From Escherichia coli (lineage in GTDB: Bacteria; Pseudomonadota; Gammaproteobacteria; Enterobacterales; Enterobacteriaceae), in NCBI RefSeq assembly GCF_024298765.1, contig NZ_CP101210.1: a stretch of 64,000 nucleotides of DNA; one strand, written 5' to 3'. The first letter of the stretch is position 1. Each line of letters opens with the position of its first letter. The notes below the pieces were generated by a model. The model saw nothing but the letters and a program-made list of their open reading frames with translations. It was not told the DNA's origin and made no database searches. Shown here one piece after another: positions 20,297-53,235 of this stretch. The position numbers and the translations under genes are program-made.

Positions 20297-21298
20297 ATGT
20301 CGGTTCGTAAGATTCCATCAGGTAAATGGCTTTGCGAATGTTATCCCTACGGAGCATCGGGAAAACGCATTCGTAAACAGTTTGCGACAAAAAGTGAGGC
20401 GCTCTCTTATGAGCGCCGTTTAATGAATAGTAGAGTTGGAGACGAGTTTCAAGATGGTTCTGGTCCTCGTCTTTCTGAGTTGATTGCTCGTTGGTTTGAG
20501 ATGTACGGCAAAACCTTGTCCTCTGGTGCAGAGCGCAAAGTCAAACTTGAGGCGATTTGTTCTAGGCTGGGAGATCCATTTGCTTCTCAGTTTGACAAAA
20601 ATATGTTTGCTACTTATCGGGAAAGAAGGCTATCAGGAGAATGGAATCCCAAGGGGAAGAAAAAACTTAGTGAAGCAACCGTTAATCGCGAGCAGTCATA
20701 TCTACATGCTGTTTTTGCCGAACTGAAGCGCCTTGGGGAGTGGTCTGGTGAAAACCCCCTGACTGGAATTCGCAAGTTTCGTGAGGAAGAAAAGGAGCTG
20801 GCGTTTCTGTATGTAGATGAGATTGAACGCCTTTTGATTGCGTGTGATGAGTCACGGAATAAAGATTTGGGGGTTGTTGTCCGTATTGGGCTTGCGACTG
20901 GTGCTCGGTGGAGTGAAGCAGAAGGATTAAAGCAATCTCAAGTACTGCCCGGTCGAATCACATTTGTTAAAACTAAAGGAAAGAAGAACCGCACTGTACC
21001 GATTTCACCTCAATTGCAGGCTATGCTTCCTAAAAAACGAGGAGCGCTATTTTCACCATGTTATGAGGCTTTTGACGCTGCAATTAAGAGAGCGAAGATA
21101 GAGCTCCCTGATGGGCAATTAACTCATGTGCTACGTCACACGTTTGCTAGTCATTTTATGATGCGGGGCGGAAATATTCTTGTGTTGCAAAAAATACTGG
21201 GGCATAGCGATATAAAAATGACTATGCGTTATGCGCATTTTGCTCCGGGTCATTTAGAGGCTGCTGTTGAATTAAACCCTTTTGACAATAGAGGGTAA
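20297..21298 (+). CDS. int: tyrosine-type site-specific integrase
   Basis: 333 aa; C-terminal HVLRHTFASH...ILGHSDIKMTMRYAH catalytic R-H-R-Y pattern; next to the att/tRNA fragment. Confidence 0.9.
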   Translation: MSVRKIPSGKWLCECYPYGASGKRIRKQFATKSEALSYERRLMNSRVGDEFQDGSGPRLSELIARWFEMYGKTLSSGAERKVKLEAICSRLGDPFASQFDKNMFATYRERRLSGEWNPKGKKKLSEATVNREQSYLHAVFAELKRLGEWSGENPLTGIRKFREEEKELAFLYVDEIERLLIACDESRNKDLGVVVRIGLATGARWSEAEGLKQSQVLPGRITFVKTKGKKNRTVPISPQLQAMLPKKRGALFSPCYEAFDAAIKRAKIELPDGQLTHVLRHTFASHFMMRGGNILVLQKILGHSDIKMTMRYAHFAPGHLEAAVELNPFDNRG

Positions 21299-21404: not shown

Positions 21405-21459
21405 TTTAAAATCCCTCGGCGTTCGCGCTGTGCGGGTTCAAGTCCCGCTCCGGGTACCA
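21405..21459 (+). other. prophage attachment-site core: 55-nt duplicate of the tRNA-Leu (leuZ-type, anticodon TAA) 3' end, not an intact tRNA
   Basis: TTTAAAATCCCTCGGCGTTCGCGCTGTGCGGGTTCAAGTCCCGCTCCGGGTACCA matches the remembered 3' portion of E. coli leuZ; the upstream 5' half does not fold as an acceptor stem. Confidence 0.7.
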
Positions 21460-41502: not shown

Positions 41503-43104
41503 ATGTTTAATCGTATTCGAATTTCGACCACGCTGTTTTTAATTTTGATTCTCTGCGGGATCTTGCAGATTGGCAGTAACGGCATGTCTTTTTGGGCATT
41601 TCGCGACGATTTGCAACGACTGAATCAGGTCGAGCAGAGCAATCAGCAACGTGCGGCATTAGCGCAAACTCGGGCGGTAATGTTACAGGCCAGTACCGCG
41701 CTGAACAAAGCGGGCACTCTGACGGCGCTTAGCTATCCGGCGGATGACATTAAAACGTTGATGACGACGGCGCGCGCCAGTCTGACGCAATCCACCACGC
41801 TGTTTAAAAGTTTTATGGCGATGACTGCGGGCAACGAGCACGTCAGGGCGTTGCAAAAAGAGACGGAGAAAAGTTTTGCCCGCTGGCACAACGATCTCGA
41901 ACATCAGGCGACCTGGCTTGAAAGTAATCAACTTTCGGATTTCCTCACTGCGCCGGTGCAGGAATCACAGAATGCGTTTGACGTTAACTTTGAGGCCTGG
42001 CAGCTGGAGATCAACCATGTGCTGGAAGCTGCCAGTGCGCAAAGCCAGCGTAACTATCACATTTCGGCGCTGGTGTTTATCAGCATGATTATTGTTGCAG
42101 CGCTCTACATCAGCAGTGCGCTGTGGTGGACGCGCAAGATGATTGTTCAACCACTGGCCATCATCGGTAGCCATTTTGACAGCATTGCTGCGGGTAATCT
42201 GGCGCGTCCGATTGCAGTGTATGGTCGCAATGAGATCACCGCCATTTTTGCCAGTCTGAAGACCATGCAGCAGGCTTTGCGTGGGACGGTAAGTGATGTG
42301 CGTAAGGGAAGCCAGGAGATGCACATTGGTATCGCGGAGATTGTCGCAGGCAATAACGATCTCTCAAGTCGTACCGAACAGCAGGCGGCATCGCTGGCAC
42401 AAACGGCCGCCAGTATGGAGCAATTAACCGCCACGGTAGGGCAAAACGCCGATAACGCACGACAGGCGTCGGAACTGGCAAAAAATGCCGCGACAACGGC
42501 GCAGGCGGGCGGTGTTCAGGTCAGTACCATGACTCACACCATGCAGGAGATCGCCACCAGCTCGCAAAAAATTGGCGACATTATCAGCGTTATCGACGGC
42601 ATTGCTTTCCAGACCAATATTCTGGCCCTGAATGCGGCAGTGGAAGCGGCTCGCGCCGGAGAGCAGGGGCGTGGTTTTGCGGTAGTGGCAGGTGAAGTGC
42701 GCAATCTTGCCAGCCGTAGCGCCCAGGCAGCAAAAGAGATCAAAGGGCTGATCGAAGAGTCAGTCAATCGTGTCCAGCAGGGTTCGAAACTGGTGAATAA
42801 CGCCGCCGCGACCATGACCGATATTGTCAGTTCGGTGACCCGCGTGAACGACATTATGGGAGAAATTGCTTCGGCGTCGGAAGAACAATGGCGGGGGATT
42901 GAGCAGGTTGCACAGGCTGTCAGCCAGATGGATCAGGTGACTCAGCAGAACGCCTCGCTGGTAGAAGAAGCGGCGGCGGCAACGGAACAACTGGCGAACC
43001 AGGCTGACCATCTTTCGTCGCGTGTGGCGGTATTTACCCTTGAAGAACATGAAGTAGCACGACATGAGTCGGCGCAGTTACATATTGCGCCAGTGGTATC
43101 CTGA
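41503..43104 (+). CDS. tap: methyl-accepting chemotaxis protein IV (dipeptide/pyrimidine receptor)
   Basis: Starts MFNRIRISTTLFLILILCG, 533 aa, directly downstream of tar. Confidence 0.9.
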   Translation: MFNRIRISTTLFLILILCGILQIGSNGMSFWAFRDDLQRLNQVEQSNQQRAALAQTRAVMLQASTALNKAGTLTALSYPADDIKTLMTTARASLTQSTTLFKSFMAMTAGNEHVRALQKETEKSFARWHNDLEHQATWLESNQLSDFLTAPVQESQNAFDVNFEAWQLEINHVLEAASAQSQRNYHISALVFISMIIVAALYISSALWWTRKMIVQPLAIIGSHFDSIAAGNLARPIAVYGRNEITAIFASLKTMQQALRGTVSDVRKGSQEMHIGIAEIVAGNNDLSSRTEQQAASLAQTAASMEQLTATVGQNADNARQASELAKNAATTAQAGGVQVSTMTHTMQEIATSSQKIGDIISVIDGIAFQTNILALNAAVEAARAGEQGRGFAVVAGEVRNLASRSAQAAKEIKGLIEESVNRVQQGSKLVNNAAATMTDIVSSVTRVNDIMGEIASASEEQWRGIEQVAQAVSQMDQVTQQNASLVEEAAAATEQLANQADHLSSRVAVFTLEEHEVARHESAQLHIAPVVS

Positions 43105-47444: not shown

Positions 47445-49515
47445 TCTGGCCGCGATGCTGCGCCTGCCCGCAAACCTGAAATCGACACACTGGCAGATCC
47501 TTGCCGGACCGATTTTGATCCTGTTGATCTTGTCGATGATGGTACTGCCACTGCCCGCATTCATACTCGACCTGCTGTTTACCTTCAATATTGCCTTGTC
47601 GATCATGGTGTTGCTGGTGGCGATGTTTACCCAACGCACGCTTGAGTTTGCTGCGTTTCCGACGATTCTGTTGTTTACCACGTTGTTGCGTCTGGCACTT
47701 AATGTGGCTTCAACCCGTATCATTTTGATGGAAGGGCATACCGGCGCGGCGGCGGCTGGAAAGGTGGTCGAAGCGTTCGGTCACTTCCTCGTTGGTGGCA
47801 ATTTCGCTATCGGTATCGTGGTGTTCGTCATTCTCGTGATCATCAACTTTATGGTCATTACCAAAGGTGCCGGGCGTATTGCGGAAGTAGGCGCGCGCTT
47901 TGTTCTCGATGGTATGCCGGGGAAGCAGATGGCGATTGACGCCGACCTTAACGCCGGATTGATTGGTGAAGATGAAGCGAAAAAACGCCGCTCCGAAGTG
48001 ACTCAGGAAGCCGATTTTTACGGCTCGATGGACGGGGCAAGTAAGTTTGTTCGCGGCGATGCCATCGCCGGGATCCTCATCATGGTCATAAACGTTGTCG
48101 GTGGGTTGCTGGTCGGCGTGCTGCAACATGGTATGAGCATGGGACACGCGGCGGAAAGTTATACGCTATTGACTATTGGCGACGGTCTGGTGGCACAAAT
48201 TCCGGCGTTGGTGATTTCTACCGCCGCGGGGGTCATCGTTACGCGTGTCAGCACCGATCAGGATGTTGGCGAGCAGATGGTGAATCAGCTTTTCAGTAAC
48301 CCAAGCGTTATGTTGTTAAGCGCCGCCGTGCTCGGTTTACTCGGCCTGGTGCCTGGAATGCCGAACCTGGTATTTTTGCTGTTCACTGCCGGATTGCTGG
48401 GACTGGCCTGGTGGATCCGCGGACGTGAACAAAAAGCGCCTGCCGAACCAAAACCGGTAAAAATGGCAGAGAATAATACCGTTGTCGAAGCGACGTGGAA
48501 CGATGTGCAACTGGAAGATTCTCTGGGAATGGAAGTGGGTTATCGCCTGATCCCGATGGTCGATTTCCAGCAGGATGGTGAGTTGCTGGGCCGTATACGC
48601 AGTATTCGCAAGAAATTTGCCCAGGAGATGGGGTTTCTGCCGCCGGTGGTGCACATTCGCGACAATATGGATCTGCAACCTGCCCGCTATCGCATTTTGA
48701 TGAAAGGCGTGGAGATAGGCAGTGGTGATGCTTATCCGGGGCGTTGGTTGGCGATTAACCCTGGTACCGCTGCCGGGACGTTACCTGGTGAGGCGACCGT
48801 CGATCCGGCATTTGGCCTGAATGCTATCTGGATTGAAAGTGCGCTTAAAGAACAGGCGCAGATTCAGGGGTACACCGTGGTTGAGGCCAGCACGGTGGTG
48901 GCAACCCATCTTAACCACCTCATTAGCCAGCATGCCGCAGAGCTGTTTGGTCGTCAGGAGGCACAACAGCTGCTGGATCGCGTCGCCCAGGAGATGCCAA
49001 AGCTGACGGAAGATCTCGTTCCTGGCGTCGTCACGCTTACCACACTGCATAAAGTGCTGCAAAATCTGCTCGATGAAAAAGTGCCGATTCGCGATATGCG
49101 CACCATTCTCGAAACGCTGGCGGAACATGCGCCCATCCAAAGCGATCCGCATGAATTAACCGCCGTCGTGCGCGTAGCGTTGGGACGGGCGATTACTCAG
49201 CAGTGGTTTCCTGGCAAAGATGAAGTCCATGTTATTGGCCTCGATACACCGCTGGAACGTTTGTTGCTACAGGCGTTGCAGGGCGGGGGGGGACTGGAGC
49301 CAGGGCTGGCGGATCGTTTACTGGCGCAAACTCAGGAAGCGCTATCCCGTCAGGAGATGTTGGGTGCGCCGCCGGTATTGTTGGTGAACCACGCGCTGCG
49401 ACCATTATTGTCTCGCTTCCTGCGCCGCAGCCTGCCGCAGTTAGTGGTGCTGTCGAATCTGGAACTATCTGATAACCGACATATCCGCATGACGGCGACA
49501 ATTGGTGGTAAATGA
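47437..49515 (+). CDS. flhA: flagellar export apparatus protein FlhA
   Basis: Starts MSNLAAMLRLPANLKSTHWQILAGPILILL; 692 aa. Confidence 0.95.
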   Translation: MSNLAAMLRLPANLKSTHWQILAGPILILLILSMMVLPLPAFILDLLFTFNIALSIMVLLVAMFTQRTLEFAAFPTILLFTTLLRLALNVASTRIILMEGHTGAAAAGKVVEAFGHFLVGGNFAIGIVVFVILVIINFMVITKGAGRIAEVGARFVLDGMPGKQMAIDADLNAGLIGEDEAKKRRSEVTQEADFYGSMDGASKFVRGDAIAGILIMVINVVGGLLVGVLQHGMSMGHAAESYTLLTIGDGLVAQIPALVISTAAGVIVTRVSTDQDVGEQMVNQLFSNPSVMLLSAAVLGLLGLVPGMPNLVFLLFTAGLLGLAWWIRGREQKAPAEPKPVKMAENNTVVEATWNDVQLEDSLGMEVGYRLIPMVDFQQDGELLGRIRSIRKKFAQEMGFLPPVVHIRDNMDLQPARYRILMKGVEIGSGDAYPGRWLAINPGTAAGTLPGEATVDPAFGLNAIWIESALKEQAQIQGYTVVEASTVVATHLNHLISQHAAELFGRQEAQQLLDRVAQEMPKLTEDLVPGVVTLTTLHKVLQNLLDEKVPIRDMRTILETLAEHAPIQSDPHELTAVVRVALGRAITQQWFPGKDEVHVIGLDTPLERLLLQALQGGGGLEPGLADRLLAQTQEALSRQEMLGAPPVLLVNHALRPLLSRFLRRSLPQLVVLSNLELSDNRHIRMTATIGGK

Positions 49516-49907
49516 TGAGAACTTTATTAGCAATATTATTGTTTCCGCTGCTGGTGCAAGCCGCCGGGGAGGGGATGTGGCAGGCGAGCAGTGTGGGCGT
49601 TACGCTGAATCACCGTGGTGAGTCGATGTCGTCAGCGCCTCTTTCTACTCGACAACCTGCTGCAGGATTGATGACGCTGGTGGCGTGGCGTTATCAGCTT
49701 ATCGGCCCGACACCTGCAGGACTGCGGGTTCGCTTGTGTTCACAATCTCGTTGTGTCGAATTAGAAGGGCAGAGTGGAACCACCGTGGCCTTTTCCGGTA
49801 TAGCGGCAGCAGAACCGTTGCGATTTATCTGGGAAGTGCCTGGCGGTGGGCGGTTAATTCCGCCGCTGAAAGTACAACGTAATGAAGTGATTGTGAATTA
49901 TCGTTAA
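49515..49907 (+). CDS. flhE: flagellar protein FlhE
   Basis: 130 aa with signal peptide MRTLLAILLFPLLVQA; start overlaps flhA stop. Confidence 0.85.
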   Translation: MRTLLAILLFPLLVQAAGEGMWQASSVGVTLNHRGESMSSAPLSTRQPAAGLMTLVAWRYQLIGPTPAGLRVRLCSQSRCVELEGQSGTTVAFSGIAAAEPLRFIWEVPGGGRLIPPLKVQRNEVIVNYR

Positions 49908-49911
49908 TGAT

Positions 49912-49945
49912 AAAAAAGCCGATGTCTGCCATGACATCGGCTTTT
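49912..49945. terminator. bidirectional rho-independent terminator between convergent flhE and argS
   Basis: AAAAAA-GCCGATGTC-loop-GACATCGGC-TTTT. Confidence 0.7.
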
Positions 49946-49959
49946 GCCGTATAACGCGA

Positions 49960-51693
49960 TTACATACGCTCTACTGTCTCAATACCCAGCGTATCCAGAC
50001 CCAGTTTCAGCGTCTTCGCCGTCAGTTGTGCCAGTTTCAGACGGCTGTTACGCACTTCTTCGTTTTCTGCGCTGAGGATCGGGCAGTGCTCGTAGAAACC
50101 AGAGAACAGACCGGCCAGATCGTACAGGTAAGCACACATCACATGCGGCGTGCCTTCACGGGCAACCACGGTGAGGGTTTCTTCAAACTGCAGCAGGCGA
50201 GCAGCCAGTTGCGCTTCACGATCTTCACGGATGATAACCGGAGCTGCAGCCAGTTGCTCTTCGTCAATTTCTGCTTTACGGAACACGGACAATACACGCG
50301 TGTAAGCATACTGCATGTATGGCGCGGTATTACCCTCAAACGCCAGCATGTTGTCCCAGTCGAAGATGTAGTCGGTAGTGCGGTTTTTGGAGAGATCCGC
50401 ATATTTCACCGCACCAATACCAACCGCGTTAGCCAGTTTTTCCAGCTCGTCAGCTGGCATGTCCGGGTTTTTCTCTGCCACCAGACGGCGTGCGCGTTCC
50501 AGTGCTTCATCCAGCAGATCGGCCAGTTTCACCGTACCGCCAGCACGGGTTTTGAACGGTTTGCCGTCTTTACCCAGCATCATGCCGAACATGTGGTGTT
50601 CCAGCGGTACGGATTCCGGTACATAGCCTGCTTTGCGGACGATAGCCCACGCCTGCATCAGGTGTTGATGCTGACGGGAGTCGATGTAATACAGCACGCG
50701 ATCGGCATGCAGTGTTTCATAACGATATTTCGCACAGGCGATATCAGTGGTGGTGTAGAGATAGCCACCATCTTTCTTCTGAATGATCACGCCCATCGGT
50801 TCGCCTTCCTTGTTTTTGAACTCATCAAGGAATACGACGGTCGCGCCTTCGCTTTCTACTGCCAGACCTTTGGCTTTCAGGTCCGCCACGATACCCGGCA
50901 GCATTGGGTTGTAGAGGCTTTCACCCATCACGTCATCACGGGTCAGCGTCACGTTGAGACGATCGTAGGTGATCTGGTTCTGCGTCATGGTGATGTCGAC
51001 CAGTTTGCGCCACATCTCGCGGAAATATTCGTCACCGCTTTGCAGTTTTACCACGTAGTTACGTGCACGCTCGGCAAACTCTTCATCTTCGTCGTAATGC
51101 TTTTTCGCATCGCGGTAGAAACCTTCAAGGTCAGCCAGCTCCATTTCACCAGCGTTTTCCTGCTGCTGCTTTTCCAGCCATGCAATCAGCATACCGAACT
51201 GAGTGCCCCAGTCGCCGACGTGGTTTGCGCGAATCACTTTGTGACCGAGGAACTCCAGAGTACGAACTGCTGCGTCACCAATAATGGTAGAGCGCAGGTG
51301 ACCAACGTGCATCTCTTTCGCCACGTTTGGCGCAGAGTAGTCAACCACAATGGTCTGTTTTTCTGGCGTAGCAACACCGAGACGATCGGACGCCAGCGCC
51401 TGCTGAACATGTTCAGCCAGGAATGCCGGATCAAGGAAAATGTTGATAAAGCCAGGACCCGCGATCTCAACTTTGCTGGCGATACCGTTAAGATCCAGAT
51501 GAGTCAGCACCTGCTCTGCTAATTGTCGCGGTGCCATACCCAGTTTTTTAGCAACTGCCATCATGCCGTTAGCCTGATAGTCGCCGAACTGAACTTTTGC
51601 TGACTGACGAACCTGCGGTTCGCAATCCGCAGGCGCGCCTGCCGCAATCATGGCCTGACGGACTTTTTCTGAGAGAAGAGCCTGAATATTCAC
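49960..51693 (-). CDS. argS: arginine--tRNA ligase
   Basis: 577 aa with class I HIGH-type motif (EMHVGHLRS) and KMSK-like region. Confidence 0.95.
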
Positions 51694-51908
51694 CGGAATA
51701 CCTTACATTGATGAAGCGAGCAAAATTTGCCCGCACCAGTTAAAGAAATTAGGGCGGGAGTATACTGCAAATGGCTGTTTTCGTCAGCAACGTGCGCGTG
51801 GCGTATTGCCGTTTTCACTATTGCATCAGAAGCGGCGTGCAATCAGCGGTTGGTTGGCGCAGGGCAACAGGGTAAATTAACGCTTTTATTGAACGACGAA
51901 GAGTGATT

Positions 51909-52475
51909 ATGGCGAACTGGCAATCTATCAACGAGTTGCAGGATATTGCATCGGATTTACCGCGATTTACCCACGCATTAGATGAACTTTCCCGCCGTCT
52001 GGGGTTGGATATCACTCCGCTGACTGCCGATCACATTTCTTTGCGTTGCCATCAAAACGCCACTGCTGAGCGCTGGCGTCGCGGGTTTGAACAGTGCGGC
52101 GAGCTTTTGTCAGAAAATATGATCAATGGCAGGCCGATTTGTCTGTTTAAATTGCATGAACCGGTACAGGTTGCTCACTGGCAGTTTTCCATTGTGGAGC
52201 TACCGTGGCCCGGGGAAAAACGTTACCCGCACGAAGGTTGGGAACATATTGAAATCGTTCTGCCGGGCGATCCAGAAACGCTGAATGCCCGTGCGCTGGC
52301 ATTGCTTTCTGATGAAGGACTCAGCCTGCCGGGGATCTCAGTTAAAACCAGTTCGCCAAAAGGTGAGCATGAGCGATTACCGAATCCGACGCTGGCGGTC
52401 ACCGATGGCAAAACGACCATTAAATTTCATCCGTGGTCCATTGAAGAGATCGTTGCCAGCGAGCAGTCGGCGTAA
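51909..52475 (+). CDS. yecM: YecM (VOC-like metal-binding protein)
   Basis: Starts MANWQSINELQDIASDLPRFTHALDE, 188 aa. Confidence 0.8.
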   Translation: MANWQSINELQDIASDLPRFTHALDELSRRLGLDITPLTADHISLRCHQNATAERWRRGFEQCGELLSENMINGRPICLFKLHEPVQVAHWQFSIVELPWPGEKRYPHEGWEHIEIVLPGDPETLNARALALLSDEGLSLPGISVKTSSPKGEHERLPNPTLAVTDGKTTIKFHPWSIEEIVASEQSA

Positions 52476-52479
52476 TTAA

Positions 52480-53235
<756 letters not shown>

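Follow-up and report, generated by a model that had tools for sequence, protein, structure and literature searches.

The window analysed here, a 64,000-nt stretch of Escherichia coli contig NZ_CP101210.1, very probably carries the common flhE–argS allele that is free of yecT and yecV, with a spacer that is the conserved Rho-independent terminator of argS and with insertion as the likelier origin of the yecT segment that other strains carry at this site. The features of the junction are as follows:

49515..49907, + strand: flhE, 130 aa, at the end of the flhBAE operon; TAA stop at 49905-49907 (open reading frame list, RefSeq annotation of strain 104, Pfam)
49908..49959, no strand: flhE–argS spacer, 52 bp, the yecT/yecV-free ('short') allele
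49914..49945, − strand: argS hairpin, predicted intrinsic terminator (terminator scan, fold z-scores, position conserved in the alignment)
49960..51693, − strand: argS, arginine--tRNA ligase, 577 aa, convergent with flhE (open reading frame list and RefSeq annotation)

The original prediction that flhE and argS converge directly, with about 52 bp and no gene between them, is confirmed by the coordinates, by the open reading frame list and by the RefSeq annotation of strain 104. The spacer between the flhE TAA and the argS stop (TTA on the + strand, 49960-49962) is exactly 52 bp. The product of flhE matches the Pfam FlhE family at 4.6e-41, and the ArgS protein accession WP_001025322.1 is common to K-12 and strain 104 in RefSeq. 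In E. coli strain 104 (NZ_CP029164.1) the RefSeq gene order is flhA, flhE, argS, yecM, with nothing between flhE and argS, and this strain is 100% identical to the window over 49300-50600 and 99.995% identical over 21405-64000. Because such a near-identical strain carries these annotations, the identities of flhE and argS are secure. The 3' end of flhE (49902-49910) reads CGT TAA TGA, a pair of tandem stops in which the second in-frame stop, the TGA at 49908-49910, forms the first bases of the spacer. In E. albertii (CGG CAG TGA) and in the divergent "E. coli" L006 (CGC CAA TGA), flhE translation ends at that TGA, and FlhE is consequently 131 aa long.

A tblastn search with YecT found no YecT-like sequence anywhere in the whole window (best E = 5), and no open reading frame of the LprI family (PF07007) lies between flhE and argS, where the spacer is just 52 bp. 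The 14-codon yecV reading frame MSIFRIHLDGNKKA is not present in the window either: its first 9-10 codons have no counterpart in the spacer, and the terminator arm ATAAAAAAGCC alone is retained. In an Rfam scan of 49000-52500 the sole match was a sub-threshold SgrS inside argS (E = 0.26), which we treated as chance, its 15.8 bits lying far under the gathering score of 37.

Outside the junction, the first 21.4 kb of the window (within 1-21459) are a P2-like prophage with capsid, portal, terminase and replication endonuclease genes and an integrase-sized open reading frame at 20297-21298, integrated into the tRNA-Leu gene leuZ. Of leuZ only the 3' 55 nt are left, at 21405-21459, and ARAGORN found no tRNA in the window. 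At the corresponding site strain 104, which came from a chicken in Liaoning, has an intact glyW-cysT-leuZ cluster, with different DNA in place of the prophage. Across the 42.6 kb compared, the window and strain 104 show two differences only, at 42632 and 58209; the window strain is therefore very close to strain 104 and set apart from it by the prophage at leuZ.

It had also been proposed that yecT lies near this junction in K-12 and that the window strain appears to lack it. An alignment with the K-12 derivative CJ236 (NZ_CP029238.1, 1961796-1962579) bears this out, with both gene content and spacing differing: the flhE–argS interval of CJ236 is 784 bp long, compared with 52 bp in the window, and holds yecT together with yecV, so yecV is missing from the window besides yecT. 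In CJ236, yecT lies on the argS strand and is 489 bp long (162 aa; Pfam LprI, PF07007, LprI / DUF1311 family, 1.1e-17), and yecV lies on the flhE strand, 45 bp and 14 codons long, with its final codons within the argS terminator arm. Homology between the window and K-12 runs up to the flhE stop codon and resumes 3 bp before the argS stop, with no convincing alignment in between. When the short spacer is compared with the long interval, only the argS terminator shows significant local similarity, at ATAAAAAAGCC(T)GAT, which scores 23 where shuffles average 12 (sd 2) and none of 500 gets as high. We dropped a likeness of the short spacer to the K-12 flhE-yecT hairpin, which is not the best local alignment. 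The G+C content of the 784-bp K-12 segment is 39.4%, versus 52.7% for flhE and 53.3% for argS.

Neither form of the junction is rare. With at least 80% of the query covered in one piece, the short junction is found in 1,782-1,783 of 5,426 complete E. coli genomes (33%), and the K-12-type 784-bp segment is found in 3,642 of the 5,426 (67%); the two counts sum to 5,425, and that the two sets do not overlap is assumed from this sum and not genome by genome. The flhE–argS junction is thus essentially a two-allele site in E. coli, with short and long forms at about 1:2. The yecT/yecV-free junction is a common presence/absence polymorphism of a small accessory gene pair and is not specific to this strain, and the polymorphism is plainly visible already in standard references such as CFT073. 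Genomes with the short allele include CFT073, strain 104, 118UI, one O18 strain and one O166:H15 strain; those with the long allele include K-12 derivatives, O157:H7, O55:H7, O111:H8, O103:H2, O121:H19 and KO11FL. Going by these few named strains and their usual types, the short allele presumably belongs to B2/D-type or extraintestinal lineages and the long allele to A/B1/E. In the literature we found no paper that discusses the flhE–argS polymorphism; the matches to yecT concern BglJ-RcsB/H-NS regulation and laboratory yecT-flhD deletions.

These counts bear on two explanations that would make the short junction peculiar to the window. An artefact of assembly or collapse is barely conceivable, given that nothing was found in its favour, that the identical sequence stands in independent complete genomes (strain 104 at 100%, 118UI, the O166:H15 strain and others) and that CFT073 has the same 52-bp gap. 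Scarcely more credible is a recent deletion of yecT in the window strain or its clone, for example an IS-mediated deletion of the motility region as in K-12 derivatives. K-12 derivatives do repeatedly lose the stretch from yecT to flhD, as reported for Keio strains after FLP expression and for evolution in the mouse gut (PMC13082787; bioRxiv 10.1101/2020.12.04.412072), but in the window the flhDC-mot-che-flhBAE block is whole, the junction carries neither an IS element nor a scar, and the same junction occurs in the 1,783 genomes, at varied identities of 94-100%, as well as in E. albertii. The deletions of the K-12 lineage are unrelated to the window allele, whose motility block is intact.

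Judged from its sequence and predicted fold, the 52-bp spacer is the conserved intrinsic (Rho-independent) terminator of argS, set directly against the flhE stop. Its only hairpin has stems at 49914-49926 and 49933-49945, which form 13 pairs around a 6-nt loop (49927-49932), with a G+C-rich core of nine pairs between GCCGATGTC (49918-49926) and GACATCGGC (49933-49941). Against shuffled sequence the fold z-scores are -5.8 and -5.2 on the two strands, and 0 of 200 shuffles are as good. Read in the argS sense, the stem-loop has the form of an intrinsic terminator, with a centroid of about -20 kcal/mol (z = -5.2), and is followed 3' of the stem on the − strand by the U-tract UUUUUUAUCAUU, the U6 of which is the complement of the A6 at 49912-49917. 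The core stem begins 18 nt past the argS stop, the downstream placement expected of an argS terminator, and the terminator scan called the hairpin on the − strand only.

Both the placement and the pairing are conserved. We aligned 12 sequences in the argS sense (four short alleles, four long alleles, one Salmonella and three Citrobacter), and throughout this alignment the hairpin lies 18-26 nt past the argS stop codon. None of the 12 departs from the GCC/GGC core or the UUUUUAU tract, and five of the nine consensus pairs are altered on both sides with pairing kept, as compensatory changes. The K-12 and Salmonella argS terminators, loop included, align with a score of 36 versus a shuffle mean of 14 (0 of 500), and the hairpin of the E. 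albertii short allele aligns to one Citrobacter terminator with a score of 24, also versus a shuffle mean of 14 (0 of 500).

The spacer had further been described as holding one bidirectional terminator. The single hairpin stands, as does its argS-sense U6, which is invariant, whereas termination in the flhE sense is only partly supported. The flhE-sense tail after the stem, UUUUG (49942-49946), has four U and falls below the scan rule of 5 T in 8, and the tail varies among other short alleles, being UGUUG in CFT073, FDAARGOS_1299 and RM14723 and CUUUG in L006. Bidirectional termination is plausible but weak in the flhE direction, and the hairpin resembles an argS terminator that would act there only in part, if at all. 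Its structure suggests that it would end argS transcription efficiently and would probably also stop flhBAE transcripts arriving from the other side, though less well.

A FlhE scan of species-representative genomes gave 58 loci, none of them from E. fergusonii, E. marmotae or E. ruysiae. Within Escherichia, E. albertii and L006 have the short allele, with an flhE–argS gap of 55 bp, and E. whittamii and Escherichia sp. E1V33 have gaps of 771 and 787 bp with yecT present. The alleles do not follow species boundaries, yecT being present in E. whittamii and E1V33 and missing from E. albertii and L006, and the flank sequences group by species and not by allele. Between K-12 and E. whittamii/E1V33, yecT has 95.7-97.1% nucleotide identity, flhE 91.6-94.6% and argS 94.7%. 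Both alleles are old, because the divergence of yecT between species is about equal to, or slightly under, that of its flanks.

Other genera have a different arrangement. In Salmonella, Citrobacter, Enterobacter, Leclercia and others with argS within 4 kb, the gap is 2.1-3.9 kb and without yecT, and none of the roughly 50 non-Escherichia loci has a YecT homologue adjoining flhE. The gene content of these gaps, read in Salmonella and one Citrobacter only, is a GH88 hydrolase and/or a PBP2 paralogue: Salmonella enterica subsp. diarizonae (L011 4394-7907) has a Glyco_hydro_88 gene and a PBP2-type transpeptidase paralogue between flhE and argS, and Citrobacter sp. (L022 4394-6459) has the PBP2-type paralogue only. 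We take the PBP2 paralogue of the Salmonella interval to be PBP2SAL. Most non-Escherichia loci share a conserved motif, roughly TTTTGATnnAAAGAAACGCTGTTTTAT, at about 70 nt past flhE, and this motif resembles an operator or promoter element. The yecT upstream/yecV region was no more similar than shuffled sequence to the DNA that lies upstream of the PBP2 gene in Salmonella or Citrobacter.

As to which allele came first, we lean towards an insertion of the yecT segment, long ago, into a junction of the short type. The segment looks like an old insertion because its G+C content is 39% against 53% in the flanks and because no other genus sampled has it at this site. The TAA stop of the short allele, which matches the flhE stop in other genera, also favours insertion. 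Regulation of the kind that yecT shows in K-12 is common for acquired AT-rich DNA. In that strain an hns stpA mutant has moderately higher yecT expression, and BglJ-RcsB activates the gene (PMC3950696), which again favours insertion.

The opposite direction, in which one ancient deletion between the flhE stop and the argS terminator removed yecT and yecV and the short allele then spread by homologous recombination in Escherichia, is possible, although we give it distinctly less credence. The gene has long been in the genus, being present in E. coli, E. whittamii and E1V33 with a divergence that matches the flanks, and the short forms in E. coli, L006 and E. albertii have one junction structure in common, which is consistent with a single event. 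Such a deletion sits poorly with the low G+C content of the segment and its absence elsewhere, with the short form of E. albertii, and with the extra codon (TAA, CAA or CAG) before the TGA of the short spacer, which would not remain after a simple deletion of the long allele. In most classifications E. albertii branches off early within Escherichia.

The K-12-type allele has the same terminator and, between it and the flhE stop, about 730 bp of additional low-G+C DNA, which comprises a terminator hairpin for yecT, yecT itself with its promoter region, and most of yecV. The two alleles coexist in E. coli and in other Escherichia species. Under the insertion that we favour, the lineage of the window strain would either never have had yecT or have lost it in the distant past through recombination with a short allele. 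Neither a target-site duplication nor the ends of a mobile element flank the yecT segment. A single direct repeat was found, the 11-nt TGTGAATTATC, at the 3' ends of flhE and yecT. In the K-12 allele (locus L001) its copies lie at 2093-2103, which corresponds to 49892-49902 of the window and thus to the last flhE codons, and at 2222-2232 in the yecT stop region; they are 129 bp apart and are kept in O157, E1V33 and E. whittamii. The repeat could be a microhomology footprint of the joining of the yecT segment, or it could be chance.

A plasmid route for yecT was considered and rejected, given only four matches and no diverged mobile homologues. Two of the four are megabase-sized records that look like mislabelled chromosomes, the third, of 0.44 Mb, has yecT annotated, and the fourth is a 5-kb record from Klebsiella oxytoca with 99.4% identity.

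The short spacer is an ordinary junction layout in E. coli and in itself matters little. It does mean that K-12 is not a universal template for the flhE–argS junction and, because about a third of E. coli are without both YecT and YecV, which are uncharacterised, any role proposed for them is dispensable. The junction also offers a natural comparison between one terminator shared by two convergent operons and separate terminators, with respect to readthrough of flhBAE antisense to argS. A more speculative reading, which we regard as improbable, is that presence or absence of yecT/yecV is an ancient polymorphism across Escherichia species, kept by selection on an envelope protein of the LprI family (a putative lysozyme inhibitor). 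If this were true, carriage of YecT would pay in some host niches and cost in others, which would account for the survival of the two alleles side by side, at about 1:2 in E. coli and also among its sister species.

Among comparable known junctions, that of CFT073 (NC_004431.1, 2113349-2113400) shares with the window the gene order, the 52-bp gap, the tandem TAA-TGA, the position of the hairpin and the A6/U6 tract. The CFT073 spacer differs from that of the window by three substitutions, two in the loop or upper stem and one that turns the flhE-sense tail from UUUUG to UGUUG. The K-12 interval has the same flanking genes, the same ArgS protein and an orthologous argS terminator about 20 nt past the argS stop, but it is longer by 732 bp, with yecT, yecV and a separate yecT terminator hairpin. 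In Salmonella and Citrobacter, flhE and argS are likewise convergent and the argS terminator is recognisably the same as that of the window, whereas the interval holds 2.1-3.7 kb of unrelated genes, for a Glyco_hydro_88 protein and a protein with Transpeptidase and PBP_dimer domains, and no yecT. Bidirectional intrinsic terminators between convergent bacterial genes have been described from full-length RNA profiling of E. coli. The window resembles them in having one hairpin between convergent stops, bordered by an A-tract and, across the stem, by T residues; unlike the invariant U6 in the argS sense, however, its flhE-sense U-tract is only 4 nt long and is not conserved among short alleles.
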